This document shows, piece after piece, positions 5,839-44,775 of a stretch of DNA of 64,000 bases. The DNA is taken from contig VEQR01000002.1 of NCBI GenBank assembly GCA_018883125.1, positions 20,023 to 84,022 of the forward strand, in the 5' to 3' direction. Made by a program: the position numbers and the translations under genes. Below the pieces are notes generated by a model. That model saw only the letters and a program-made list of their open reading frames with translations, was not told the DNA's origin and did no database searches. Origin of the DNA: Candidatus Kapaibacterium sp. (GTDB lineage: Bacteria; Bacteroidota; Ignavibacteria; Kapaibacteriales; Kapaibacteriaceae). Numbering within the stretch: the first letter of the stretch is position 1; each line of letters opens with the position of its first letter.

Positions 5839-6639
5839 TTACGGCTTTGCCGGAGCGTTCTGGAAGACCGGACTTGTAGACTCTTGCACAAAACCATAGG
5901 CGCGCAGGTCTACGTCCGGGTTGTCTGGGTGCGTTGTCTTGAACTTCACACCGCCATTGTAGTTGCCCTTAGCAAGTGGCACCAGCTTGGCAATAATGTC
6001 CAGCTTACTCTTAGCCTTCACAACAACGCGCCCGGTGTGGTTAACAACAACCCCACCTTCGGTCTGCCAGTCGGAGAGTGTGACATCAGCGTCAGAATTG
6101 TTCACCATTTCAACCTTCGACGTTGCTTCCACACCAACCTTGAGGTCATTGAACGCAAAGTACATTGATGGATTGAACGCGATCTCGCGCTGAACGTCTG
6201 CCTTCAGCCACAGGTAACCTGTGCGGATGTTCGTATCGGCACCGCTTGGAACAGTCTTGCCGCTGGTACGGAATTCCTTCAGGGCATCATTGCCCGCAAG
6301 GTCGGCCCACGAAAGGGTGATGCTCTTGGTGAGTGAACCGGCCTGTGTTGGTGAAATGTTCAGCTTGACCTTCATGGTGCTGATCTCACCCGGCTTCAGA
6401 TCGTACTTATCCGGATCGGTCTTTGTGCATCCGCAACCGGGACGAACTTCCGTGATGCGCACAGCGCGATCGCCGGTGTTCTTCATTTGGATGGATGCTT
6501 CGAGATACCCTTCCTTCGGGGGCTTGACCTTACCCCAGTCGTAGGTGTCACCACCGACGACTTCAAGTTTTGCCTGAGCAGATGCCGATATCGTGGCAAA
6601 CACACCAACGACGGCAATAAGCAGAATGCGGTTGAGCAT
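5839..6639 (-). CDS. DUF1573 domain-containing secreted protein
   Basis: The internal ATG at 6639 gives the signal peptide MLNRILLIAVVGVFATISASAQA. The hallmark motif VRPGCGCTKTD is present in the first domain, followed by a second similar beta domain. The 44-aa upstream ORF extension lacks signal features. Confidence 0.75.
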   Translation of the reverse strand: MLNRILLIAVVGVFATISASAQAKLEVVGGDTYDWGKVKPPKEGYLEASIQMKNTGDRAVRITEVRPGCGCTKTDPDKYDLKPGEISTMKVKLNISPTQAGSLTKSITLSWADLAGNDALKEFRTSGKTVPSGADTNIRTGYLWLKADVQREIAFNPSMYFAFNDLKVGVEATSKVEMVNNSDADVTLSDWQTEGGVVVNHTGRVVVKAKSKLDIIAKLVPLAKGNYNGGVKFKTTHPDNPDVDLRAYGFVQESTSPVFQNAPAKP

Positions 6640-6719
6640 TGGTAAACTCCAAACAAAAAAGTGTGGTGCAGTGAGTGTGCGTGGTTGACGAACACGGAAC
6701 AAATATAGTATCCCCGCGG

Positions 6720-7478
6720 CTATCGCCCCCTCATCACGCGGATGCCAAGTCCAAGATCTGAGCTGCGCCACGGATGTGCCGCAGACAGACTACCGATAGT
6801 TGTTCCTATTCGCAGAAAAGGCTCGATATAGTACCCGAAGGAAAGGGGCACATCATACCCCACCGAGAGATAAGGCTCCAGTACAACCGACGCCGCATCA
6901 TCAAGTCCGGTGGTGGGGAGAACGGCCTCGCGCGATCCGTCGGTAAAGGTGGCATCTGGCGGACCGACGACCGTTTCCCGATTTGCCATGGAGGAGGACA
7001 CGAGAATATTCGCCCGGGCCCCTGCGTCCACTACGAGCATGGTTCCGCCGACACGCTGCCGGAACTCGGCCCCAACAGTGAGGTGGGTCAGGTTCGCATT
7101 CAACAGGTACTGTGTGACAAGGGGCGCTTCATTAGCCCGCGGATAGGTCGATATCGGGGCGGCAAACTCGGCGGACTGCATCACCAGGCCAACCTGGAGG
7201 GCAACGGCCTGCTGCGGAGCAAACCAATACTCGGCCAGAAGTCCAATCCGAATAGGAGTGGACGAACCGTTTTCATACGAACAGCATGCATTGGCGATGT
7301 CCTTCTCGAGATACGGCAAGGCTCCGCGATGGCTCGCCAGCCCCATACCCGCCTCAAGTCCCAAGAACATCGTCGGGGCCTGATAGGGCCGTCGCAAAGA
7401 AGGTTGCCAGTCGAATCCCTGCGCGGTGAGTTCGTACGCGAGCACCAGCGCAGCAACGATGATCACAGACAATTTCAT
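6720..7478 (-). CDS. Small outer-membrane beta-barrel protein, CC-x-YE motif family (paralog of 42371..43195)
   Basis: 252 aa. Signal peptide MKLSVIIVAALVLAYELTAQG. The body has an alternating beta-strand pattern. It shares ANACCSYENGSS and a C-terminal WRSSDLGLGIRV with the 274-aa protein at 42371 (SCCPGYESTSGS, WTISPLRIGVGIL). Its start overlaps the upstream cargo gene stop as ATGA. Confidence 0.6.
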   Translation of the reverse strand: MKLSVIIVAALVLAYELTAQGFDWQPSLRRPYQAPTMFLGLEAGMGLASHRGALPYLEKDIANACCSYENGSSTPIRIGLLAEYWFAPQQAVALQVGLVMQSAEFAAPISTYPRANEAPLVTQYLLNANLTHLTVGAEFRQRVGGTMLVVDAGARANILVSSSMANRETVVGPPDATFTDGSREAVLPTTGLDDAASVVLEPYLSVGYDVPLSFGYYIEPFLRIGTTIGSLSAAHPWRSSDLGLGIRVMRGR

Positions 7479-9676
7479 CGCTGCACCACGAGAGGAATCG
7501 TCTGCATGCCGTCGCCCATGCGAACGACAACCGCATAGGCGGCAGGGGGCAACATGGACACATCGATCGTGGCTGTTGTGATGGCGTCAGTGCATACGAC
7601 CTGCATCGTCTGAACACACGGCCGACCAAGTGCATCGAGCACGTCAACAGACATCACACTTCCCTGCTGAGCTATCACAGCCACGGTAGCACCATCGAAC
7701 GCCGGGTTGGGCAGCACGCCGGCCCGGAAGGTCTTGAGTCCACTGACTGCCGTCTTGTACGACAGACCGCAAACAGAATCGATGGAGACCCGTCCGGCAC
7801 GGACGCGAAGCGGCAGCAGATCCGGACACTCGGCAAGACCAACCGTGCTGTTATCGGGATTGATCACCACCCTTGTTGATGACGAGTCACCGAGAAACAG
7901 TCGCATGCGAAGCGTTATCAGGGTATCGCCTTCACCAAAGCCTGCGTCATCACGTAGGTCAACAACAGCTCCCTGAGGACGGGCATCAATAGACGCAAGG
8001 GCAGTGGCACTTGCGGTGCCCTGGCGCTGCAGGTCAATGATGGCCGCAACACTCGGGTTGAAATTCACAAACAGTGATGCACGCTGGAGTCCACGGACAA
8101 ACCCGGACCCGACGACCACAGGAACGGCAACAACCGAACCAGGCCGTGCCGACGCATCGGCCACGGTGTGCAGGGCAAGTGTATCGGCCGATATGGCCGT
8201 TGCAACAAATGGAATGGGGCGGCGTGGCTCCACACCTGTTGAATGCAGCACAACGTCGCCGGTGATACGGCCCGGAAATCCGGCTCTGAAGGAGCATTGC
8301 AACGTACGCACTGCTCCGGCCGGAAGAAGGTATTGCTGCGGCGTAACAGTGATGCCGGCATCAGGGGGCGACACGGTTACCGAGTCGACACGGATATCGG
8401 TATTACCGAGGTTCGAGATCTCTACCTGCGCGGAAGCTTCATTGGAGCATGTCGAAGAAACGATGACCGGACCAAGAGAAAGGGGCTCTGGAACAACCTT
8501 CACACTCGACCGTGCCCGGCCGATCACGATCAGGGAGCGGCGCGCCGCCTCCGAAGGGACGTCGCCAAATCCGCGGCGCAGAAGATCCGTGAAGACATCA
8601 AGGCGCGCAATACACTCACCTCGTTGTGAAGGGGCAAAGCCAACACTCACGGTATCTGTGCGATCAATACCAATCGACGTGGCAAATCGAGACAGCGTAA
8701 AAGCCCCTTGCCCCTTGATGGGAACAACAACAATGCTGTCGATGTGCACATCGGCATTACCGGCATTACGCAGACGAACATTCAGGTTTACCACAGACCC
8801 GGCCAGAACGTCGCTAACGATCACCGTGTCAGGCTGTGCCACCACGATTGGAGAACTCACACCCGAAGCGCTTGCGCCGACGATATCGATGCGCTGTTCA
8901 ACACCCACGCCGCTTATCCGCGTCATGACGATCGTATCACGAACGTTGTCAGCATTCACATATCGCAATTCGAAGTCCGCACTATCGCGTCCACGATCGA
9001 GCGGGCGGTACGATACCTTCCAGTCAATCGCTCCTCGTTCGGGGAACTCCACACGGGCAAACGTATCAACCTGAATCTCCTGCGGACCCAATGACGGGGT
9101 GCGAAGAAGTAGTCGCTGGGATACCACTGGGAATCGTACCGGCAGGAGATTCTGCACGGTGTACGTTACCTGCCGAGCCATGGGTGTGGCTAGATACACA
9201 CTATCAAAACGGACGTGCCGCTGCACAGTGCCCAGAACGTTACCGGTCTTGAGTCCACGTAGGATGAGCACCTTCCGCTGAATCGGGCTCTGAGACGGTA
9301 GACGAAGCACGTCGAGCACGAGTCGTACCTCAGCCACAGAATCTGCGGGAAAGAAAGCAACGTCGGCCCGATAACGCACGTTGAGAGACCGTGTGGTCTG
9401 GGGCGAAATGTCCTCGTTACTGAACAAGCCCTCGAACTCGTTCACCACCGGTGATTGCTGACCAGAGATATCGGTCCGCGACGGTACGATACGAACGGTT
9501 GAGTCGGTTGCGTTGCGCACGGTGAAGGAGCGCGTGAGCGGCCGATTGAACGTCGTAACGCCAAAGACGATCACCGTGTCGGACTTGGCCGACTCGTCTA
9601 TGAATATCTCGACTTGTGCCTGCGTCCGGACAATTCCCAACGCAGTGATGGCCGCGATGATCAGCCAATGGCGCAT
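7475..9676 (-). CDS. Large secreted protein: repeated choice-of-anchor-D/ASH-like beta domains, a cohesin-like module and a T9SS C-terminal domain
   Basis: The ATG at 9676 gives the signal peptide MRHWLIIAAITALGIVRTQAQ (733 aa). Segments such as FGVTTFNRPLTRSFTVRNATDSTVRI recur. A cohesin-like segment reads ARPGSVVAVPVVVGSG...LFVNFNPSV. The C-terminus LPNPAFDGATV...AAYAVVVRMGDGMQTIPLVVQR looks like a T9SS sorting domain. Confidence 0.7.
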   Translation of the reverse strand: MRHWLIIAAITALGIVRTQAQVEIFIDESAKSDTVIVFGVTTFNRPLTRSFTVRNATDSTVRIVPSRTDISGQQSPVVNEFEGLFSNEDISPQTTRSLNVRYRADVAFFPADSVAEVRLVLDVLRLPSQSPIQRKVLILRGLKTGNVLGTVQRHVRFDSVYLATPMARQVTYTVQNLLPVRFPVVSQRLLLRTPSLGPQEIQVDTFARVEFPERGAIDWKVSYRPLDRGRDSADFELRYVNADNVRDTIVMTRISGVGVEQRIDIVGASASGVSSPIVVAQPDTVIVSDVLAGSVVNLNVRLRNAGNADVHIDSIVVVPIKGQGAFTLSRFATSIGIDRTDTVSVGFAPSQRGECIARLDVFTDLLRRGFGDVPSEAARRSLIVIGRARSSVKVVPEPLSLGPVIVSSTCSNEASAQVEISNLGNTDIRVDSVTVSPPDAGITVTPQQYLLPAGAVRTLQCSFRAGFPGRITGDVVLHSTGVEPRRPIPFVATAISADTLALHTVADASARPGSVVAVPVVVGSGFVRGLQRASLFVNFNPSVAAIIDLQRQGTASATALASIDARPQGAVVDLRDDAGFGEGDTLITLRMRLFLGDSSSTRVVINPDNSTVGLAECPDLLPLRVRAGRVSIDSVCGLSYKTAVSGLKTFRAGVLPNPAFDGATVAVIAQQGSVMSVDVLDALGRPCVQTMQVVCTDAITTATIDVSMLPPAAYAVVVRMGDGMQTIPLVVQR

Positions 9677-33977: not shown

Positions 33978-34984
33978 GGCGAAGGGGTGCCGCTGTTGCA
34001 GCGGCCGTTGGATGTGTAATGATGATCATGCTGCTGGCAGTGCTCAACCAGCCTCTAGATAGGCGAATGTCGGTGATGATTCCGCGGTCGTCAGTGGGCG
34101 CTTCTGCGGTCATCGACAGCATTCGGTCGAATGCAGGAAAGCGTCATGCGTGGGTGACATCCACCCTGGTTTCTGTGGGCCTGAAGATCACATCGCGGAA
34201 GGTGCTGCCCGGCTGGTATCACCTCGCCCGTGATGCATCCGCCCTCGACATCGCCACGATGATCGTCTTTGGTAGGCGCGAGCCCCTTGTCAAGGTCACG
34301 ATCCCTGAAGGATTCACCATTGAGCGCATCGCCCGGCGCCTCACGGTTCGGGCTGGCATCGATTCAGCAGCTTTCCGTTTATGGTGTCAGTCCGACTCCG
34401 TATTGCGCCGCTTCGACGTGCACGCCCCCTCGATGGAGGGCTTTCTTATGCCCGACACCTACTTCATGATCCGTGGCGATGACGCGCGATATGTGGCTGA
34501 GCTAATGGCCGCACAGGCACAACGCGTCTGGTCGAGCTTATCGGGCGTCGACTCACTGGCCGACTGGAACACTCGTCTGAGGCTGGCTACGCTGGCATCG
34601 ATCGTGCAGCTGGAGGCCGCAGTCGATGATGAAATGCCCACCATCGCCGGCGTGTACACAAACCGTCTTCGGATCGGGATGTTGCTGCAGGCCGACCCCA
34701 CCGTGCAGTATCTGACGGGACGTGACCGAATCACCGCCAGCGAACTTCGCGATGCATCGAATCGCTATAACACCTACGTCTACAAGGGGCTCCCACCCGG
34801 ACCAATCGGCAACCCCGGACGTAGAGCACTCGAGGCGGCGTGCAGGCCAGAAATCCATGAGTGGATCTTCTTCGTTGCTCGCGGTGATACGTCGCGACGA
34901 CACCGCTTTGCCAGAACGCTCGAAGAGCACAATGCCAACGTCAGGCTGTACCGAACTGCTAGGCGCGAATCATCATTGAATTAG
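33974..34984 (+). CDS. mltG: Endolytic murein transglycosylase MltG (YceG family)
   Basis: 336 aa with an N-terminal TM segment. The motifs TIPEGFTIERIA, LASIVQLEA and YNTYVYKGLPPGPIGNPG are present. It shares an ATGA overlap with the ABC ATPase gene. Confidence 0.85.
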   Translation: MRRRGAAVAAAVGCVMMIMLLAVLNQPLDRRMSVMIPRSSVGASAVIDSIRSNAGKRHAWVTSTLVSVGLKITSRKVLPGWYHLARDASALDIATMIVFGRREPLVKVTIPEGFTIERIARRLTVRAGIDSAAFRLWCQSDSVLRRFDVHAPSMEGFLMPDTYFMIRGDDARYVAELMAAQAQRVWSSLSGVDSLADWNTRLRLATLASIVQLEAAVDDEMPTIAGVYTNRLRIGMLLQADPTVQYLTGRDRITASELRDASNRYNTYVYKGLPPGPIGNPGRRALEAACRPEIHEWIFFVARGDTSRRHRFARTLEEHNANVRLYRTARRESSLN

Positions 34985-36432
34985 TCGGAGCTGACGATTG
35001 CGCTTTCCTTGCCCCGTTCATCGGCGGCCTGAACGCGGAATGCAAAGGGCTTCGAAGCGTCGCGCCGTGTGATCTCAAACACTTCCACCCAGGCTACAAC
35101 CGGACGCGTATTGTCTGCCGGACGCAGGTAGCCGGATAGTTTCCGTGGCGCAGTTGCATTTCCATCGACAACACGCAGCTGAGGCCTGTTCTCGCCCCGT
35201 TCATTGGAGAAGAACTGCACCACCACCATGCGCTTGTTCGGGTCGGCATCGCGGCGGATCTCCCTGATAACCGGTCCCGGGAAGGGTCGCACGATAAGGG
35301 GCTGAGCACCGACCTCAGCGCTACCATTGACCGACCTCTCAAACAGCATTGTCTTGCCCGTATCGCGTGCTGCGAACCTCACCCGGATCAGGCCTTGGTC
35401 CACCGACACAATCTCCCTGCCACCGTCGCGGATCACCGCTCTCACATCCGAGCGATCTGCCGGGAGCTTCGGATCGATCGTGTACTCCACGCCGGGATAA
35501 ACCACATCCGGTACCGATGGCGTTGCGTAGTTCATTGCGCTGACCGTAAACCGCGTGGTCGCCACGCGTCCGTCAGACCGACGTGCCGAAACCTCAACGA
35601 ATGCGGTCCCAGTGCGTGGCGCACGCCCACGCACCACTAGCGTCCGCTGATCGATCGTCCGTGAGACGTCCTGCATCGTCTCTCCACCCAGCCGGACACT
35701 CGGCAGATCAAGCAGATCCCGCTGCGGATCAGCCCCACCGATGCTGATGCGGTTCGTCCATTCTGCGCTGGCAAACGACGATATGTTGTCACGGGCCGGC
35801 TCAAGCCAGAACTCTGCCGCTCCGGCAGACGGCACGGATGTCGGCGACGATTCCCGAAGGACCAGCGTGTCGCGACGTCCGGGCAGAAACACCAGCTGTG
35901 GGGGCTGCTGATCGTTCACCACCGTCATCAGAACGAACTGCGTACTTCCCACCGCTTGCATGGCATCGGTGGCAACGCCATTTACCGGCGTGCCACTGGC
36001 ATACACCGTAACACGGAAGGTCTTTGAGAGTGCGGCATCAGCCAAGGGGCTCCAGGAGAACACAAAGGCACTCCGAGACGGATCATGACGCAACGATGCA
36101 AATCGCCTCGTTGACGGAGACCGTTCGTCGATCGTGAGCGACTGTCCGGAGGCGACATCTTCGATCACGGCCCGGACAGTAACATTTGTGAGCTGAGGAG
36201 AGTAGTGAATGACGTTGGCGGAATCCAGGCGAAGCAGGCGCACAGCACCGGACGAGTCGCGCTTGACCTCACACGTCAACCGCACACGCTCCGGAAACAG
36301 TTCAATGCGAAGAGGAGTCTGCGACTGATCTGTAGTTGACGGTACCGATGCCCCGTCGGGCATCAGAAGAACCAATGCCAGAAGGTACAGAACGAAGTAG
36401 ATCTCAACTCTACGACGCTGACGCTGGTCCAT
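34981..36432 (-). CDS. Single-pass membrane protein with a GldM/PorM-like N-terminal TM segment and an all-beta periplasmic region
   Basis: The ATG at 36432 gives MDQRQRRRVEIYFVLYLLALVLLMP. This resembles the GldM N-terminal pattern R-x7-Y within ..MYLVF.AMLAL. The remaining ~450 aa look beta-rich and multi-domain, with no obvious helical D1-type domain. It overlaps the upstream GldL-like gene by 23 nt. Confidence 0.45.
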   Translation of the reverse strand: MDQRQRRRVEIYFVLYLLALVLLMPDGASVPSTTDQSQTPLRIELFPERVRLTCEVKRDSSGAVRLLRLDSANVIHYSPQLTNVTVRAVIEDVASGQSLTIDERSPSTRRFASLRHDPSRSAFVFSWSPLADAALSKTFRVTVYASGTPVNGVATDAMQAVGSTQFVLMTVVNDQQPPQLVFLPGRRDTLVLRESSPTSVPSAGAAEFWLEPARDNISSFASAEWTNRISIGGADPQRDLLDLPSVRLGGETMQDVSRTIDQRTLVVRGRAPRTGTAFVEVSARRSDGRVATTRFTVSAMNYATPSVPDVVYPGVEYTIDPKLPADRSDVRAVIRDGGREIVSVDQGLIRVRFAARDTGKTMLFERSVNGSAEVGAQPLIVRPFPGPVIREIRRDADPNKRMVVVQFFSNERGENRPQLRVVDGNATAPRKLSGYLRPADNTRPVVAWVEVFEITRRDASKPFAFRVQAADERGKESAIVSSD

Positions 36433-37222
36433 TCCGATCAACGATGTTGCGTGAGAGAATGCGCTCGAGCTCTTGACGCACAAGGCGCTCGACTTCTTGG
36501 CGTTCAACGGCCTGCAGACGTTCACTCAGCGCACTGACGCTCTCGGTGAATTCCGCCAGTGCCTTCGTGTTCATCTTCATGGATGCCATCAGCTCGGGAT
36601 TTGGTGCTACCGCCCCAACGGCAGCCTGAACACTCTCGCGAAGCTGCTGCGTCATGGTATCCTGCCGTTCGACGACTTCGTGCAGCGTTACCGAGATCGT
36701 CTCAAGTTGAACGGCCATTGCCGCATAGTCTCGACCGATCTCCCCGAGCTCACGAATAAGCTCCTGAGATGTTGAGCCCCCTTCACCATTCCCATGCATC
36801 TCATCCGATTCAGCCGGAGGCGTGAAAAACATGACCAGGAATAGAAGCAACAGAAGGAGGGCTTCGGTGACAATTGCCGCAACAAGAAGGCCCGGAGTGT
36901 CAATAACCCGCACGCGGTTCAGACCAACGGCCACCAAGAGGAAGGCCGCGCCCATGTACACAAACGCATTGATGGGTGCATAGTAAAAACGATTGACAAT
37001 CTCCTGCATCCATAGAGACGTGCCCGAAAGAAGTCCAAGAGGGTGCAGTACTGTGACGTCGCGATTGACGGTGCGGAAAAGATCGCTTTCGCGTGTGCAG
37101 ATGCGCCAGAGCAGAACAAGCGTCGGCAACGAGCCCATCTGCTTGTCGAATCGAAGCTCCTGATGCAGGTCTCGAAGCAGTGCCCTGCCCGCAGCGGTCG
37201 AAAGTGTTTCGAGCGTCGTCAT
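36410..37222 (-). CDS. GldL/PorL-like two-TM stator protein with an N-terminal extension and a helical C-terminal region
   Basis: TM1 is FVYMGAAFLLVAVGLNRV..DTPG (compare GldL/PorL Y.(M/W)GAA.VI.GALFK...PG). TM2 is AAIVTEALLLLLLF followed by the acidic FTPPAESDE (compare GL.TEA.IF..SAFEP.E.E). The C-terminal ~130 aa are rich in Glu/Gln/Leu/Ala and look helical. The start could be ATG 37222 or GTG 37276. Confidence 0.5.
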   Translation of the reverse strand: MTTLETLSTAAGRALLRDLHQELRFDKQMGSLPTLVLLWRICTRESDLFRTVNRDVTVLHPLGLLSGTSLWMQEIVNRFYYAPINAFVYMGAAFLLVAVGLNRVRVIDTPGLLVAAIVTEALLLLLLFLVMFFTPPAESDEMHGNGEGGSTSQELIRELGEIGRDYAAMAVQLETISVTLHEVVERQDTMTQQLRESVQAAVGAVAPNPELMASMKMNTKALAEFTESVSALSERLQAVERQEVERLVRQELERILSRNIVDRNGPASAS

Positions 37223-37339
37223 GAAATGGCTGGTGCTCTTGGTGAGTAAACGGAGGCCAATGATACGGAATAGCACCTTTTGTTACTTGTCGGTGCGCCG
37301 ATTCTGTCGTATTCTCGTTTTCTGACTCTGCATTCATTC

Positions 37340-40300
37340 ATGAGGACCGCGATGACTACGCTCCTTCGCCGTGCTGCCCCGCTAGCTGTGTTTATTCTTG
37401 TCGGTCTGATTCTGCCAGCCTTGGCAGGAACACCCCGAAACATGCCCTCCCCTGGCGGTCCGGTAGCCTTCGAACGCAACGTGGGCCAGGCGCGATACGA
37501 CAACGGTCAATCCGGACGGCACGTCGATGCCGTCTTGCGGCTTGGGTCGACGATGGCATACATCCACGCATCAGGTCTCGACATCATGCAACAGGCGGTG
37601 CACCGCCTCCCGTCGCGAAATCAATACGAGCAGGATGTCGAAGTCGACATCGTTCGGGCTGACATGCGCCTGATTGCCAGTAATCCCGACCCTCGGGTTG
37701 AGTTCCTTCAGCCCCAACCGGGAACGGTTCGCTACATCACAGCCCAGACCGGTGTTGAGGGTGTGGTGGCCCAACGGTACGGAACACTGGTGTATCACGA
37801 TGTGTGGCCGGGCGTTGACATGCGTCTGTATCTCACACACCTCGGCCTGAAGTACGATTTCCTTGTGCATCCGGGTGCCGATCCTTCGCAGATCGCCTTC
37901 AGATATGATGGGACCGAACAGCCATCACTCGATGAAGACGGCAATCTCCTCGTGAAGACAGCGCTCGGCTCTCTCGATGAACAAGCTCCGGTGGTGTTTA
38001 CCAGCGACGCGGCGGGACTCTCGCGCACACCCGTCGGATCCCGATACAGCGTCAGCGGCTCCTCGATCCGGTTCCGCATCGAGGACTACGACCGCTCCAA
38101 GATCCTTGTGATAGACCCGCAGCGCGTCTGGGCCACGTATTACGGTGGCAATGCCAGTTTTGAATCGGTCTATACTGCCGTTGATCCGTCCGGCAGCGTG
38201 ATCCTGGCAGGAACGACCCTAGCGACGAACATGCCGAGCATCGCGGGCGCTCTCCAGCGGCGATTGAAGGCCGGGATGGATGGGTACGTTGCGAAGTTCA
38301 ATGAGAATGGCGTTTTTCAGTGGCACACCTACTACGGCGGCTCACTTATCGACCGCCTGCATGATGTGACAACGGATGGCAAGGGAAACATCTGGACTTG
38401 CGGTCAGTCAGACTCCAAGGACCGTCCGGAGGTCTCAAACGGCCTGCTTGGCAGTTCACCATTGGGCGACCCCGATTCCGTTCAGGGAGCTGACGCTATT
38501 GTTCTGAAGCTCGCGCCGGACGGAAAGTGGTCCGACAGCTGGGAGGTCTGGGGACGCGAGAACGACATCGCAACAGGCATCGCGGTTTCCGCAACAAAGG
38601 TTGCGATCGTCGGCTACACCCGCTCGCCGCGCCTCGGTGGACTCTTCGGTGAGGCACCGTGGAGAAAGGACTCCTCGAACTTTGGCAGCAACTTTGACAT
38701 GTTCGTCAGCGTTGTCAAACTCAAAACGCCACCAAGCCCCACCCGCCCAGAACAGTGGGTCCACGATTACCTGATCTTCTATGGAGGGGCCGGAGACGAC
38801 CTCGGAGGAAAGATCGGTTTCGATAAGCAATCCAACGTCATCTTCTCTGGCTACGGCTATTCGGCCAACTTCCCTGTGACCGATGGCTCCACCTACAAGG
38901 GTATGGAGGATATCTACGTGGTGAAGTTTGGTCCCACAGCCAATAGGATCTGGGCATCGATGTTTGGATCCACAGTGGACGAGGATCTTGGCGACCTGGC
39001 GGTCGATAGCAAGGGTGATGTGGTGGTCGTCGGCACCACCTATGGTGCAGACCTGCCAACGTCAAGCCCAATCAAGGCCGCAAAGGCCGGTATAACAGAT
39101 GGCTTCATTCGCAAGTACACCTCTGCCGGCACTGTGGCATGGTCAACGTACTATGGCGGAGACTCTGCTGACGCGGTGCGCGGAGTGGCCATGGACCGCG
39201 CTGACAACATCTGGATCGCTGGCAGTACAGCTCGATCGCTCAACATTCCGGTTACGGCCGACGCCATCCAAGCGACACCGTATGTGACGTCAGTAAATGG
39301 TTCACTTGCGGGCACCGACGGATTCGTTGGCAAGTTGAATCCCGCTGGCAGCGCGGTGCTATATGGATCTTATCTCGGTGCCCCCCCGCAGGACACCTTG
39401 CCCAAGCCACCGGCACCCCCGCCCGCGCCACCACCGCCGTTGCCGCCACCAAACACCGATTTCGGAACTGATGAGCTGTTCGATGTTGCTACCGATAACA
39501 ATGCCTACGTCGTCTTCACAGGGCGGTCAACAACGTATCGCATGACGACAACGAACGGAGCTTTCCAGGACTCCTCCGGTTTGGCCAAGGATACCGTTCG
39601 CGCAAATGCCTACGTAACTCTCTTCAGCCAATGCAAAGACTCGATCATCACGATCATTCCGAATGGTCCGGCAACGCTCTGCGATGTAGAGACGCGTCAG
39701 CTTGTTGGCCCGAAGGGTTTTGCGCGTTACCGGTGGTCGAACGGCGACACGACGCAGACAACGATTGCTCGCGACTCCGGATCATACACATTGCTGTGCA
39801 CAACCACCGACGGTTGCCGCTATCGGGACACTATTTACATCGGACGAAATCCAAAGCCATCGGTATCCGCCGGACGCGACACGTCCGTGTGTATTCGCTC
39901 AAGTATTGCTTTGACTGCTACCCCAAGCGGTGGAACTGCCCCCTATCGATTCAAATGGAATCGTGTTGAAACAGGACAAGAGTTTATCGATGACGACACG
40001 CTCAAATCGCCGAACGTCAACCCTGGTACAACCTCGCGCTATGAGGTTACGGTAACGGATTCTGCGGGCTGTTCATCAAAGGACACGGTGCTCGTAACGG
40101 TGACAGATCCAAAGCCAACCATCGGGCCGGCAACGGTGGATTTCGGAACCATTGATGGCTGTGCTTCATCTGCGGAAGTGGATGTTGCCGTGTTCAATCC
40201 GCAGGCCTACGAAGTGCGCATCACGGGCTTTGTGCCGGACGATCCGCGTCTGAGCCTTCTAACGTCGGTCTCCCCTGGCATCGTCATTCCACCAGGCGCA

Positions 40301-42352
40301 AGCAAAACGATCAGGCTCCGGATCTCGGCAACGTCGGCCGGTCAGATCAATGGAACCTACAACATCACGGGAACTCCATGTTCGTGGACCGCACCGGGTA
40401 AGTACACGGCAAAGAAGGATCAGCTGACGGCATCGATTTCTCCGGGCGTGGTGTCATTCGGTGCGAGTGTGGTCTGCGACGCAGCAGAAAAGCTTGATAC
40501 AGCGGTGATCACCAATAGCGGCAAGGTAGATCTTATCGTGAAGCCCGCCGCTGCAACAGCCCCCTTTGCGCTCGTCTCTCCTACGGCTGAGGTAACACTC
40601 AAGCCAGGTGAGCGTCGCGACGTTATCTTCAGGTACACACCGACTGTTGGAGTTCATAGCTCCGATATTGTCTTTGGGTACGAATCCGGCCCATGCAAGG
40701 ACTCTCTCCGAGTCCGCCTGAATGCTATCACCAGCGAGGTAACAGCCGCTGTTACGCCAGCCACGATCAACGGTGGAACTCTCTCCGGTTGCGAGAACCA
40801 AAAGGACACATCGATCACGATCGACAACACGTCGAACGTTGCCATTTCGGTAACCCTACCCACAGATGCGGAGATCGTCTACTCGCCGGCAGGTCCGATC
40901 GACATCGCTGCAAAATCCTCTGTGCAGGTTGCCGTGTCTCTGCGTCCGGGAACAGCCGGACTCTTCAGCCGTACACATGACCTGACGATCGAACCGTGTA
41001 AGGCCAAGACAAGCGTATCCTACACGATACAAAAGAATGGCATCGCATTCACGACACCATCAACTGTTGATTTCGGCGAGTTCTCAGCCTGTGTGCCGGG
41101 AACATCGACGCAGCGTAGCGCTTCTCTGTCGTTCGATGGCTCGGGAACAGCAACGATAAAGTCTGTTGCGACTGGACCACGCATTACCACCTCATTGACG
41201 AACGGTCAAGCACTTACATCGGGTCAGGCAGCACCGTTCACAGTCACGTGGACCCCTGCTGCAGATGGTCCGCTGGTGGACAGCATTGTTGTGACATTTG
41301 ACCCGTGCGACGTTCGCCGAGTGATCCGTGTAAGCGGCACACGCACAAGCATTGCTCTTCGGTCAGACAATCCAACGGTCGCTCTTGGCGCAATCACGGG
41401 CACAGCTTCCGGCAAGGTGAAGTATACCAACACCGGAACCGACACCATCTTCGTTGGTGTCTCCTCCAAGAGTGTCGGAACAGCCGTTGACGCTGCCGTG
41501 CCGGGTCCGCTGGTAGGCGTACTGCCGGGTGCTGAAGTCTCGGTTGACTTTACGACCGCCTGTAGGGACCGAACGTCCATCAGTGACACGCTCGAGTGTA
41601 TCGTCCTACTCCCCTGCGCCGGCGTCACGGCTCAGTCGGTGATCACGGCATCCTGCGCCAAAACAACCGTTGTCAGCAGTACGATCTCTATCGACACTGT
41701 CAGTAAGAAGATCGGCGAACAGTTCGTTGTGCCGATCCGCATTCGTTCATCACAGGGACTCAATGCAGCCGGGGCCAGCTCATGGCGCGCAACGGTCAGC
41801 TACGATCCATCGGTGATCGTTGGCCGGGCGAACACCACCGACTGTTGGCTGCCGAACAACGTTGGGCCATGTTCTATCACCATTCAGGGTACACGTGGCA
41901 CCGATACGGTTGGAACGCTCTTCGCACTGAACTATACCGCAGTGCTTGGTTCCACTGACCGCTCGGCTTTAACGCTCACCGACTTCCAATGGATAGGTGT
42001 GCAAGGCGCAACGATCGAAAAGCGGAACGGCTTGGTGACCATCAGTGATATCTGTCGCGAGGGCGGTGATCGCTACCTCGTCGGCAAGGCCAATGGCTAC
42101 GGCGTGCGTGTGTACCCAACGCCGGCAACATCGGATGTCACTATCGATGTGAAGGGGCTTGGCACGGATCAGCTTCGCTGGACCCTGTGCAACATGCTGG
42201 GAGAAGTCATTGCTGATGGCATTGGCCGGGCTGATGCCTCCGGTTCTCTGCAGGTAAGCATCGACGTGAGCGCCTTCGGCGCAGGCACATATACGATCAC
42301 CACGGCCGCGCGTGGCGATGTTCAGTACCTACCATTTGTCATTCAACGATAA
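37340..42352 (+). CDS. Giant secreted protein (1670 aa): SBBP-like beta-propeller repeats, Pro-rich linker, PKD/Ig-like and choice-of-anchor-D-like domains, cohesin-like module, T9SS C-terminal domain
   Basis: The ATG at 37340 gives MRTAMTTLLRRAAPLAVFILVGLILPALAG. SBBP-like repeats are present (DGYVAKF..G...W.TYYGG). The linker reads PKPPAPPPAPPPPLPPP. Many units of about 100 aa start V.FG....C. The cohesin-like segment reads IGEQFVVPIRIRSS...ATVSYDPSV. The sorting tail reads VRVYPTPATSDV...GTYTITTAARGDVQYLPFVIQR. Confidence 0.75.
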   Translation: MRTAMTTLLRRAAPLAVFILVGLILPALAGTPRNMPSPGGPVAFERNVGQARYDNGQSGRHVDAVLRLGSTMAYIHASGLDIMQQAVHRLPSRNQYEQDVEVDIVRADMRLIASNPDPRVEFLQPQPGTVRYITAQTGVEGVVAQRYGTLVYHDVWPGVDMRLYLTHLGLKYDFLVHPGADPSQIAFRYDGTEQPSLDEDGNLLVKTALGSLDEQAPVVFTSDAAGLSRTPVGSRYSVSGSSIRFRIEDYDRSKILVIDPQRVWATYYGGNASFESVYTAVDPSGSVILAGTTLATNMPSIAGALQRRLKAGMDGYVAKFNENGVFQWHTYYGGSLIDRLHDVTTDGKGNIWTCGQSDSKDRPEVSNGLLGSSPLGDPDSVQGADAIVLKLAPDGKWSDSWEVWGRENDIATGIAVSATKVAIVGYTRSPRLGGLFGEAPWRKDSSNFGSNFDMFVSVVKLKTPPSPTRPEQWVHDYLIFYGGAGDDLGGKIGFDKQSNVIFSGYGYSANFPVTDGSTYKGMEDIYVVKFGPTANRIWASMFGSTVDEDLGDLAVDSKGDVVVVGTTYGADLPTSSPIKAAKAGITDGFIRKYTSAGTVAWSTYYGGDSADAVRGVAMDRADNIWIAGSTARSLNIPVTADAIQATPYVTSVNGSLAGTDGFVGKLNPAGSAVLYGSYLGAPPQDTLPKPPAPPPAPPPPLPPPNTDFGTDELFDVATDNNAYVVFTGRSTTYRMTTTNGAFQDSSGLAKDTVRANAYVTLFSQCKDSIITIIPNGPATLCDVETRQLVGPKGFARYRWSNGDTTQTTIARDSGSYTLLCTTTDGCRYRDTIYIGRNPKPSVSAGRDTSVCIRSSIALTATPSGGTAPYRFKWNRVETGQEFIDDDTLKSPNVNPGTTSRYEVTVTDSAGCSSKDTVLVTVTDPKPTIGPATVDFGTIDGCASSAEVDVAVFNPQAYEVRITGFVPDDPRLSLLTSVSPGIVIPPGASKTIRLRISATSAGQINGTYNITGTPCSWTAPGKYTAKKDQLTASISPGVVSFGASVVCDAAEKLDTAVITNSGKVDLIVKPAAATAPFALVSPTAEVTLKPGERRDVIFRYTPTVGVHSSDIVFGYESGPCKDSLRVRLNAITSEVTAAVTPATINGGTLSGCENQKDTSITIDNTSNVAISVTLPTDAEIVYSPAGPIDIAAKSSVQVAVSLRPGTAGLFSRTHDLTIEPCKAKTSVSYTIQKNGIAFTTPSTVDFGEFSACVPGTSTQRSASLSFDGSGTATIKSVATGPRITTSLTNGQALTSGQAAPFTVTWTPAADGPLVDSIVVTFDPCDVRRVIRVSGTRTSIALRSDNPTVALGAITGTASGKVKYTNTGTDTIFVGVSSKSVGTAVDAAVPGPLVGVLPGAEVSVDFTTACRDRTSISDTLECIVLLPCAGVTAQSVITASCAKTTVVSSTISIDTVSKKIGEQFVVPIRIRSSQGLNAAGASSWRATVSYDPSVIVGRANTTDCWLPNNVGPCSITIQGTRGTDTVGTLFALNYTAVLGSTDRSALTLTDFQWIGVQGATIEKRNGLVTISDICREGGDRYLVGKANGYGVRVYPTPATSDVTIDVKGLGTDQLRWTLCNMLGEVIADGIGRADASGSLQVSIDVSAFGAGTYTITTAARGDVQYLPFVIQR

Positions 42353-42370
42353 CCGACCGAGGAACCACCC

Positions 42371-43195
42371 ATGACACACCGTCTGCTTGCTGTTCTTGCT
42401 GTGCTCTCCCTCGGTACAGGCTCTGCTCTGGCCCAGGAATCTCTCTCCAAAGAACGTCCAAAACCTGCCCCGAAAAAGGCTCCGGTCCTGATCTCAAAGC
42501 GCGTCATGTCCGTAGGAGCTCATGCCTCCTATGGTATCATGATGAACGGCGTTTCGGCCTTCAAGCTGCCGTCCGTGCCATCGTGCTGTCCGGGCTATGA
42601 ATCAACATCCGGATCGGGGATGGTCTTCGGAGCCGAGATCGCGATCCCTATGTCGGAGACCATTGACATTGGCGGACGCTTGGTTTACCAATCAAGCTCC
42701 ACGGACTTCACCGCTGCAGAGCCCATCACCGTCCGGGCCGGAAATGGCGTTCTGGTGTCTGCCATCAATCACTCGTTCAAGACAACTACGAGCTTTCTCA
42801 TGATCGAGCCGGTGGCCAGCTTCAAACTTGGAGGCGGACTCTCAATGATGGCAGGACTGCGCGTTGGAACAACGCTTGGTGGCACGTACGATCAGCAGGA
42901 GTCGCTGGCCGATCCTTCGATCCCCTATGACTTCTCGTCCGGATCGGGACTCAACAACGTGAAGGCCGGTGATATTCCCAACACCAGCGGACTGCAGGCC
43001 GGTGTGCTGCTTGGAGTGCGCTATGGCGTAGCGCTGTCGGGCGGACTCTCCCTGATGCCGGAGGTCACCTACTCGCCGATGTTCACCGATGTTGTCACCG
43101 ATGCCTCGTGGACCATCTCGCCCCTTCGCATCGGCGTCGGCATTCTGTTCGACATCATGAGCACAGAAACAGCGTCAACCCCGATACAGCCGTAA
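42371..43195 (+). CDS. Small outer-membrane beta-barrel protein, CC-x-YE motif family (paralog of 6720..7478)
   Basis: 274 aa. Signal peptide MTHRLLAVLAVLSLGTGSALAQE. The motifs PSCCPGYESTSGSG and the C-terminal WTISPLRIGVGILFDI are present. It starts 18 nt after the giant cargo gene stop, with a GAGG Shine-Dalgarno-like element. Confidence 0.6.
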   Translation: MTHRLLAVLAVLSLGTGSALAQESLSKERPKPAPKKAPVLISKRVMSVGAHASYGIMMNGVSAFKLPSVPSCCPGYESTSGSGMVFGAEIAIPMSETIDIGGRLVYQSSSTDFTAAEPITVRAGNGVLVSAINHSFKTTTSFLMIEPVASFKLGGGLSMMAGLRVGTTLGGTYDQQESLADPSIPYDFSSGSGLNNVKAGDIPNTSGLQAGVLLGVRYGVALSGGLSLMPEVTYSPMFTDVVTDASWTISPLRIGVGILFDIMSTETASTPIQP

Positions 43196-43206: not shown

Positions 43207-44775
43207 ATGGCCAACATCCACGACGAATGCCTGCGACGGCGAACCGTTGCCATCATCAGCCACCCTGATGCCGGCAAGACAACCATGACGGAAAAGCTTC
43301 TTCTCTATTCCGGTGCGATCCACAAGGCCGGAGCAGTGACAGGGGGCAAGCACAGTTCCACCACGTCGGACTGGATGGAGATCGAGCAGCAGCGCGGAAT
43401 CTCGGTGTCCTCCAGTGCCATGCGCGTGGACTACGATGGAATTCTGCTGAATATCCTCGACACTCCGGGGCACCAGGATTTCTCCGAAGACACCTATCGC
43501 ACGCTGATGGCCGTCGATTCGGCCATCATGCTCCTGGACGCTGGCCGTGGTGTGCAGGAACAGACCATCAAGCTGTTCAAGGTCTGCCGTGACCGGGGAA
43601 TCCCCATCATCACCTTCATGAACAAGATGGACCGTCCGGCCCGCGACCCGCTGGAGCTCTTGGACGAGGTGGAGCAGGTGCTCGGGATCTCGGCGATTCC
43701 TCGGACGTGGCCGATCGGAGACGGCCCGGATTTCCGAGGCATCTACGACCGCCAGTCCGGTGAGTTCTTCGAGTTTGAACGCACAGTTGGTAATCGGTAC
43801 AAGGCCCCTGTGAGCGTTGGTGATATCCGAGGACAAGAACTGCGATCGGCTATCGGAGAGAACGCTCACGACAAGCTTCTTGAAGACCTTGAATTTATTG
43901 ATCATGTGATCCCCGAGTTTGACACCAAAGCGTTCCTCACGGAGAAATGCACACCGGTGTTCTGGGGTTCGGCAATCACCAACTTCGGTATTGAGCATTT
44001 TCTCCGATCGATTCTTGCACTTGCACCGACGCCACAACCCTATGCGATGTCTACCGGAACGATCGAACCGGAAAGCAACGAGTTTGTTGGCTTTGTCTAC
44101 AAGGTGCAGGCCAACATGAATAAAGCGCACCGCGATCGTATCTCGTTTGTGCGCATTGTTAGCGGGACGTTCTCGCGGGGTATGACGGCAATGCACCCGC
44201 GAACGGGTAAGGAAACAAAGCTCACCTATCCGTTCGAGATCTTCGGGCGGGAACGCAAGATCATTGACGAGGCCTACCCCGGAGATGTGATCGGGCTTAC
44301 CAACCCTGGTCTGTTCCAGGTGGGCGATACCCTGACGGAGCGCACGGCAGCTACCTTGCCGTCGTTCCCCCGCTTTGCCCCGGAGATCTTTGCCAAGGTC
44401 TGGCCTGCCGCAGGATCGTTCTCGAAGTCTTTTCGCAAAGGAATTGATCAGCTCCGCGAAGAAGGGGTGATCCAGATCTTCACCGAGGCCGACGGGAGCC
44501 CCGTTCCGCTTGTTGGCGTTGTCGGTGAGCTGCAAATGGAGCTTTTTTCGTGGCGCATGGAGAACGAATACAACGAGCGCATTCGCCTCGAACGTCAGCC
44601 CTACACACGAGCACGCTGGATCATTGGCTCCACCCGTCCGGCAACATCGGCACCCGTGGTGCTTGACGATCACGACCGCGCCGTGGTGCTCTTCAAAAGT
44701 GACTGGGAGATCGACTACACGATTCAGCGCTCAGAAGGTCTTGAGCTGTCGGAGAAGCCCCCTGTGATGGCCTGA
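43207..44775 (+). CDS. prfC: Peptide chain release factor 3
   Basis: The ATG at 43207 gives MANIHDECLRRRTVAIISHPDAGKTT. The G-domain motifs DTPGHQDF and NKMD are present, and the length (~522 aa) fits RF3. Confidence 0.92.
   Translation: MANIHDECLRRRTVAIISHPDAGKTTMTEKLLLYSGAIHKAGAVTGGKHSSTTSDWMEIEQQRGISVSSSAMRVDYDGILLNILDTPGHQDFSEDTYRTLMAVDSAIMLLDAGRGVQEQTIKLFKVCRDRGIPIITFMNKMDRPARDPLELLDEVEQVLGISAIPRTWPIGDGPDFRGIYDRQSGEFFEFERTVGNRYKAPVSVGDIRGQELRSAIGENAHDKLLEDLEFIDHVIPEFDTKAFLTEKCTPVFWGSAITNFGIEHFLRSILALAPTPQPYAMSTGTIEPESNEFVGFVYKVQANMNKAHRDRISFVRIVSGTFSRGMTAMHPRTGKETKLTYPFEIFGRERKIIDEAYPGDVIGLTNPGLFQVGDTLTERTAATLPSFPRFAPEIFAKVWPAAGSFSKSFRKGIDQLREEGVIQIFTEADGSPVPLVGVVGELQMELFSWRMENEYNERIRLERQPYTRARWIIGSTRPATSAPVVLDDHDRAVVLFKSDWEIDYTIQRSEGLELSEKPPVMA

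Follow-up and report, generated by a model that had tools for sequence, protein, structure and literature searches.

Outer-membrane barrels encoded directly behind type IX secretion cargo genes in Candidatus Kapaibacterium: candidate dedicated carriers of the neighbouring cargo

The window considered here is a stretch of 64,000 nucleotides (nt) from contig VEQR01000002.1 of a Candidatus Kapaibacterium sp. genome. At two places in the window, once on each strand, a gene for a large protein with a type IX secretion system (T9SS) C-terminal sorting domain (CTD) directly precedes one that encodes a small β-barrel protein of the outer membrane. We refer to the large proteins as cargos and to the small proteins as barrels. 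The barrels belong to a family whose members recur behind T9SS cargo genes in this genome and in others of the same class, and the linked cargos have in common a tail with one nearly invariant cysteine. The barrels are likely to be dedicated outer-membrane carriers or anchors of the cargo encoded upstream, as judged from gene linkage and sequence conservation. The features of the two loci are the following.

37340..42352, plus strand: cargo 1, 1670 amino acids (aa), stop codon TAA, with orthologues of like architecture; its parts are a signal peptide, DUF7948, an SBBP propeller, PKD/Ig domains, HYDIN/choice-of-anchor-D Ig domains, a pre-CTD module, a junction cysteine and a T9SS CTD
41699..42052, plus strand: pre-CTD β-sandwich module of cargo 1, about 118 aa, where the AlphaFold2 confidence (predicted local distance difference test, pLDDT) is about 93
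42053..42055, plus strand: junction cysteine (Cys1572) of cargo 1, 98 aa from the C-terminus, with the motif I-C-x-E-G-G-x-R-L, at the end of the module and ahead of a disordered linker
42101..42349, plus strand: type-A-like T9SS CTD of cargo 1
42371..43195, plus strand: barrel 1, 274 aa, with a signal peptide, a conserved N-terminal tail after Gln22 and an eight-stranded OmpA/OmpX-like barrel
42584..42589, plus strand: twin cysteines C72-C73 of barrel 1, inside loop 1 (residues 62-78)
7475..9676, minus strand: cargo 2, 733 aa, with choice-of-anchor-D/HYDIN Ig domains, a divergent pre-CTD module, junction Cys636 and a CTD
about 7772-8158, minus strand: divergent pre-CTD module of cargo 2
7769-7771, minus strand: junction cysteine (Cys636) of cargo 2
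7478-7714, minus strand: CTD of cargo 2
6720..7478, minus strand: barrel 2, 252 aa, distantly paralogous to barrel 1
7281-7286, minus strand: twin cysteines C65-C66 of barrel 2

The open reading frame (ORF) map confirms the cargo-then-barrel layout that the original prediction had described for both loci. On the plus strand the two genes are separated by 18 nt, a spacer that contains GAGGA and is followed by the ATG of the barrel gene, and on the minus strand the cargo and barrel genes overlap by 4 nt (ATGA at 7478).

The same prediction had related the two small proteins to each other through a vicinal-cysteine motif and a C-terminal strand marked by a W residue. Pairwise BLASTP between barrels 1 and 2 gave nothing significant (best E 0.20), so that motif resemblance alone is weak evidence. 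The family profiles of the two proteins do match (hhalign 97.6%, E 3.3e-12, 209 columns), in an alignment that pairs the YE after the twin cysteines and the C-terminal W strand, with the cysteine pair offset by one residue; the proteins are therefore distant paralogues. Each barrel has exactly two cysteines, which are adjacent (C72/C73 in barrel 1, C65/C66 in barrel 2) and invariant in alignments of 28 and 18 homologues respectively. Both signal peptides end in A-Q. Homologues fall into 38 clusters for barrel 1 and 19 for barrel 2, from metagenome genomes of the Kapaibacterium/Kapabacteria/Ignavibacteria type, and all 57 are without a functional name, any named ones being called 'hypothetical protein'. 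In addition, each barrel has an N-terminal tail that starts with Gln after the predicted cleavage site (residues 22-39 of barrel 1, 42434-42487; residues 20-38 of barrel 2, 7364-7421). These tails are unstructured, well conserved and family-specific, with Q-E-S-L-S-K-E-R-P-K-P in barrel 1 and Q-G-F-D-W-Q-P-S-L-R-R-P-Y in barrel 2, and are presumably periplasmic.

An AlphaFold2 model of barrel 1, based on a 28-sequence alignment, has eight long strands (pLDDT 86; predicted template modelling score, pTM, 0.74), as anticipated for a barrel protein. The best solved relatives of this model found by Foldseek are the OmpA transmembrane domain, Ail, OmpX, NspA and OmpT/Pla, with probability 1.0 and modest template modelling (TM) scores; among them are OmpA 9fzd_A (0.55 by target), OmpX 1qj9 (0.60) and Ail 3qrc. 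A search of Protein Data Bank (PDB) sequences with the barrel profile returned designed barrels only, at E > 0.08. Long connections in the model join strands 1 and 2 (residues 62-78, which hold the twin cysteines) and strands 5 and 6 (residues 180-193), and the opposite face has connections of 2-7 residues. Loop 1 thus holds the twin cysteines and faces away from the C-terminus. Because most paralogues run from strand 8 into OmpA domains, the C-terminus would be periplasmic and the cysteine loop should be extracellular. Among orthologues the loops of the cysteine-bearing face are the most conserved regions of the barrel (entropy 0.5-1.1), and the turns of the opposite face vary most (1.6-1.9). 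Outer-membrane proteins usually show the opposite trend, and the conservation suggests that the loop face is a binding surface.

The original prediction could not assign the barrels to a family. They can be placed: the family appears to be a divergent branch of the Pfam OMP_b-brl_2 (PF13568)/OmpA-type barrels. Neither window barrel itself matches OMP_b-brl_2, which is found among 10 of the 28 homologues of barrel 1 (best E 7e-10) and 3 of the 18 homologues of barrel 2 (best E 0.019). Two paralogues from the same genome, C95_5205 (38.3 bits) and C99_1489 (32.9 bits), exceed the gathering score of 27. Type-A CTDs direct proteins along the PorV/PorU route, which ends in linkage to lipopolysaccharide or in release, and type-B CTDs are served by private PorP/SprF carriers; to our knowledge, T9SS substrate sorting is understood for these two signal types only. 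PorP/SprF membership of the barrels was considered and rejected. A hidden Markov model (HMM) search against PorP/SprF, as the earlier work had proposed, detected neither PF11751 nor TIGR03519 in the two barrels at E <= 1, and these families are absent from those matched by 46 homologues. A 14-stranded PorP/SprF barrel with a type-B cargo was likewise set aside, the model having eight strands and the cargo CTDs matching type-A models. Neither PF11751 nor TIGR03519 is matched anywhere in the genome at E <= 1.

Profile searches of the 2.9-Mb, 99%-complete genome assembly revealed about 19 barrel paralogues, ten of which have the twin cysteines at the same place. Family members occur alone or as fusions with two periplasmic OmpA_C domains. 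Most paralogues are 590-800 aa long (about 700 aa) and consist of the barrel and two OmpA peptidoglycan-binding domains; OmpA_C (PF00691) scores above the Pfam cut-off in six of the eight long paralogues scanned, as two stretches each, and matches weakly in the other two (E 0.0014 and 0.058). OmpA_C is missing from barrels 1 and 2.

To place these genes relative to cargos, CTDs were detected with an HMM built from the CTDs of this genome. Directly downstream of a T9SS CTD gene are nine of the 19 paralogues clearly and two more marginally, and a further two lie at contig ends. In the genome as a whole, a CTD gene is the upstream neighbour of only 89 genes out of about 2419 (3.7%); the barrel linkage is about 15-20 times higher than background. 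Four of the upstream proteins (C113, C129, C148 and C180) have no CTD by Pfam or NCBIfam; the genome's own HMM finds a clear CTD in C113, marginal ones in C180 and C129, and none in C148. The N-terminal parts of the upstream cargos are mutually unrelated and include DUF7948/propeller, WD40, FCGBP_N and Ig arrays.

Linkage of the homologues to cargo genes extends beyond this genome. Regions upstream of barrel genes were collected for 140 more loci and another 30. With same-genus duplicates excluded, the analysis covered 172 loci, drawn from this genome and from further genera of its class; a gene for a CTD or module lies directly upstream at 120 of them (about 70%). Distance matrices of barrels and modules are correlated (Mantel r 0.53, p <= 0.001, 85 pairs) and nearest neighbours agree in 35 of the 85 pairs, so the cassettes evolve as units. 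Of 151 genomes sampled from the class, 76 have the family, typically with 10-17 or more copies each, and within this sample it occurs in all members of some taxonomic families and in none of others; in a sample of 301 genomes of the phylum, multi-copy sets are confined to this class. PorP_SprF matches were obtained in six of the 66 genomes of the class with multi-copy barrels and in 38 of the 85 others, a complementary pattern that is suggestive only, given the weakness of most matches and the relatedness of the genomes.

Other arrangements of these genes also occur in the genome. On one strand of C121:16142-28398 (loci L002, L004 and L022) there are a barrel-OmpA gene, a 1450-aa cargo, a second barrel-OmpA gene, a 368-aa ORF and a gene for a 669-aa protein that has the module and a C-x-x-x-C-E-S-G motif and no recognisable CTD. 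At C95:12-6026 and C5:20550-30772 (L023 and L024), proteins of about 300 aa that contain little beyond the module, the cysteine and the CTD are encoded with a giant protein of 1415 or 2419 aa on one side and a barrel on the other, and these small proteins may be adaptors.

The large proteins had been described as having one C-terminal order of repeated β domains, a cohesin-like module and a sorting domain. An order of Ig domains, homologous pre-CTD module and T9SS CTD stands, and HYDIN/ASH/choice-of-anchor-D Ig domains are found in both cargos. The data do not establish a cohesin fold: the Cohesin model of Pfam (PF00963) scores 20.7 bits in cargo 1 (cut-off 24.1), and three of 19 module sequences match it weakly at E >= 0.065. 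The CTD of cargo 1 matches PF18962 (27.6 bits, cut-off 27) and that of cargo 2 matches TIGR04183 (24.0 bits, cut-off 23); both matches are borderline, and each cargo fails the other type-A model.

The tail common to the cargos consists of a β-sandwich module of about 120 aa, a cysteine, a linker and a type-A-like CTD. The approximately 140 residues ahead of the CTD form one family, which in this genome is found almost only in barrel-linked cargos. Alignment of 19 such tails, taken from this genome and others, reveals one nearly invariant cysteine, in the motif I-C-x-E-G-G-x-R-L, and an AlphaFold2 model of the tail (pLDDT 90) has a β-sandwich at residues 1-118 with the cysteine at its end, a disordered linker at 124-132, and the CTD. 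The junction cysteine lies 97-100 residues from the C-terminus in eight cargos of the genome, and one small cargo, C5_27704, has no other cysteine beyond its likely signal peptide. The module of cargo 2 is homologous to the cargo 1-type modules at the profile level (A4 against A5, 98.4%, E 4e-15), a score that is partly owed to the CTD; an HMM of the module alone gave no detection in cargo 2. The cysteine motif of cargo 2, D-S-V-C-G-L-S-Y-K-T, is invariant in 15 orthologues. A PDB sequence search with the profile of module and CTD gave weak CTD matches only.

These data bear on the possibility that there is no specific partnership at all, the barrels being generic OmpA-like envelope proteins or porins that are present in many copies and whose cassettes have been duplicated as blocks. 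The fold and the C-terminal OmpA domains are indeed those of generic OmpA-type proteins, a substantial minority of barrel loci have no cargo upstream, and the whole neighbourhood is syntenic around both window loci. We nevertheless consider this explanation unlikely, because the linkage far exceeds background and recurs with many unrelated cargo N-terminal parts, one specific tail module travels with the barrel, the loop face rather than the membrane core is most conserved, and the cysteines of the two partners co-vary.

Co-variation was assessed in the 120 cargo-linked pairs, the junction being alignable in 104. The distribution of the two kinds of cysteine is as follows.

Barrel loop-1 cysteines present, cargo junction cysteine present: 97 pairs
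Barrel cysteines present, cargo cysteine absent: 3 pairs, from one orthologue group
Barrel cysteines absent, cargo cysteine present: 0 pairs
Barrel cysteines absent, cargo cysteine absent: 4 pairs

This distribution has a p value of about 8e-6 if the pairs are taken as independent, which they are not. The four barrels without cysteines form two separate clades, one of which is paired with the cargo lineage that also gives the three barrel-only cases. The pattern therefore rests on two losses in barrels, both in cargo backgrounds that lack the cysteine. In a group of loci from other genomes (L118, L083 and L147), some barrels have C-x-x-C in place of the adjacent pair in loop 1 and some have a single cysteine, and some cargos have a second cysteine five residues before the junction cysteine (F-C-x-x-x-x-C).

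A disulfide between the junction cysteine of the cargo and the twin cysteines of barrel loop 1 is a possibility that we entertain only tentatively. An alternative is that the barrel is a dedicated but non-covalent carrier or anchor, in which the twin cysteines form an intramolecular vicinal disulfide that gives loop 1 its shape, or join barrels into oligomers, and the cargo cysteine has another role, for example in CTD processing. All of the linkage evidence applies equally to such a partner, and the cysteine pair is kept in barrels that have no adjacent cargo and in C190-type pairs whose cargo lacks the cysteine. Moreover, disulfide bonds join OmpA-like proteins into oligomers in P. gingivalis and T. 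forsythia (PMC12635249). Against it, the loop-1 cysteines are lost only beside a cargo without the junction cysteine (four of four such pairs, in two clades, and none of the 97 others), and a single conserved and apparently unpaired cargo cysteine at a fixed distance from the end would still need explaining. On balance we regard non-covalent retention as somewhat doubtful, though plausible.

The genomic evidence supports the suggestion of the original prediction that the barrels are cognate secretion or anchoring partners, from which we infer a physical partnership: the barrel probably catches its own neighbour and holds it on the cell surface. The complete explanation, a dedicated carrier or anchor with a disulfide tether, is offered with reserve, since several points weigh against it. 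No CTD or module gene lies upstream at 52 of the 172 loci (about 30%), and most of these barrels have intact twin cysteines. One orthologue group, to which the C190 type of this genome belongs, retains the pair in its barrel although its cargo has no junction cysteine. The co-variation is founded on only two or three evolutionary events, and the correlated trees may reflect physical linkage alone, as adjacent genes duplicate together. Among 126 other CTD proteins of the genome, 23 have a cysteine at -94 to -103 and at least some of these share the motif. The extracellular position of loop 1 is deduced from strand count and domain order, the physical partnership is drawn from gene order and co-variation, and the order of steps and the disulfide are proposals.

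A different use of twin cysteines is known from the T9SS itself. In SprF and in the eight-stranded PorG, twin cysteines form a disulfide with the single Cys343 of GldK (PMC12635249). By analogy, the cysteine pair of the present barrels might face the periplasm and bond to a GldK/PorK-like hub, thereby coupling the barrel to the T9SS/gliding motor. We set this link aside as highly improbable on topology and on the lack of a GldK match: the twin cysteines lie in the loop between strands 1 and 2, opposite the C-terminus that bears periplasmic OmpA domains in paralogues, the window barrels have no cysteine in a C-terminal tail, and GldK (TIGR03525) was not detected at E <= 1e-5 in this nearly complete genome. 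SprA, PorU and PorV are present and there are more than 100 CTD proteins; the core T9SS machinery of this clade looks non-canonical.

The sequence of events that would be expected for a disulfide-tethered cargo is as follows. The cargo would cross the outer membrane through SprA, guided by its type-A-like CTD, which would then be cut off in the flexible linker, presumably by PorU/PorV. The remaining C-terminal β-sandwich module would dock on its own barrel at the conserved loop face (L1-L4), where the junction cysteine, about 98 aa from the end of the precursor, would attack the twin cysteines of loop 1 to form an intermolecular disulfide and retain the cargo on the surface. Forms of the barrel that are fused to OmpA domains would in turn be pinned to the cell wall.

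The genes that surround the two pairs include the following.

43207..44775, plus strand: prfC (release factor 3), starting 11 nt past the barrel 1 stop codon
44829..48278, plus strand: third cargo, 1149 aa, with an AgmC_N-like N-terminus, the pre-CTD module, a cysteine 97 aa from the end and a CTD

The prfC gene encodes full-length release factor 3 (NF001964, 642 bits). It had been regarded as an odd housekeeping passenger; this is not so, as its position beside barrel 1 is kept syntenically in relatives, and it is probably co-transcribed with the cargo 1-barrel 1 module. Cargo 1, barrel 1 and prfC are not separated by any terminator-like site, an observation that is weak either way because the overall count of such sites does not exceed that of shuffled sequence. 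Both window pairs hold their gene order in relatives down to 35-40% barrel identity; this adds little, because the whole neighbourhood is syntenic there. The tail of the third cargo matches the shared tail (98.3%, E 2e-14). Since its module, cysteine and CTD follow prfC, two such cargos flank barrel 1. The N-terminal 400 aa of the third cargo match NCBIfam gliding_AgmC_N (E 5e-52, below cut-off), and no barrel gene of its own lies directly downstream. Two genes at 34981-37276 on the minus strand are divergent from cargo 1, and their counterparts at the same position in relatives have no Pfam match on record. The gene after barrel 2 (5839-6771, minus strand) matches the OS_HP2 family (seleno)protein model (E 4e-12, below cut-off), with a weak choice-of-anchor D match; its orthologues have DUF1573/HYDIN Ig domains and keep the same position in relatives.

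A literature search found no published description of this cargo-barrel system. It appears that a whole clade of Bacteroidota uses an unrelated private barrel for cargos with type-A-like tags, in 10-17 or more copies per genome. More speculatively, the pairs might constitute a third class of T9SS cargo-carrier system, with a tail in two parts (a docking module that carries a reactive cysteine, and a type-A-like CTD), a private OmpA-type barrel and covalent capture by thiol-disulfide exchange, which would replace PorP/SprF-type carriers in a Kapaibacteria/Ignavibacteria-type clade that has no recognisable GldK; we consider so broad a claim doubtful at present. If a surface disulfide anchor does exist, it would extend the twin-cysteine disulfides of T9SS and gliding proteins from the periplasm to the cell surface. 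The cargo-tail motif together with the barrel would also give a simple rule for predicting which secreted proteins of these uncultured bacteria remain cell-bound.

Several known systems share some of these characteristics. With the PorV/PorU type-A pathway the present cargos have in common their type-A-like CTDs, in a genome that encodes PorU, PorV and SprA; canonical type-A cargos use one general carrier, are released or linked to lipopolysaccharide and have no private barrel, whereas a private barrel is encoded here. The OmpA family provides the barrel fold (Foldseek probability 1.0) and the C-terminal OmpA_C domain of most paralogues. In contrast to OmpA, the sequences do not match the OmpA barrel families, OmpA_C is present as two tandem copies (and in neither of the window's two barrels), and the conserved loops, the cysteine pair and the cargo linkage are not OmpA features. 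SprF and PorG with GldK likewise combine a T9SS-linked barrel that has two close, invariant cysteines, eight-stranded in PorG, with a partner that has one conserved cysteine. There, the cysteines form a C-x-C in the periplasmic C-terminal tail and the partner is the periplasmic track lipoprotein GldK; in the present barrels the two are adjacent and sit in loop 1 of the opposite face, the secreted cargo is the putative partner, and no GldK was detected.

Another parallel is with the type-B cargos, which stay bound to cognate PorP/SprF-like barrels, PorE tying PorP to peptidoglycan (PMC9143113, PMC12618676). As with SprB-SprF and PG1035-PorP-PorE, the cargo gene is directly beside its own outer-membrane barrel gene, there are many paralogous pairs per genome, and surface retention of the cargo is the role proposed for the barrel. 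The link to peptidoglycan by OmpA_C, provided by the separate PorE in that system, is fused to the barrel in most paralogues here. The differences are that the present barrels have no PF11751 or TIGR03519 match and are eight-stranded and OmpA-like rather than 14-stranded, and that the cargo CTD is type-A-like and preceded by a module of about 120 aa and a conserved cysteine. The best reading of these comparisons is that the cargo-barrel pairs would be analogous to the type-B CTD/PorP-SprF pairs but unrelated to them.

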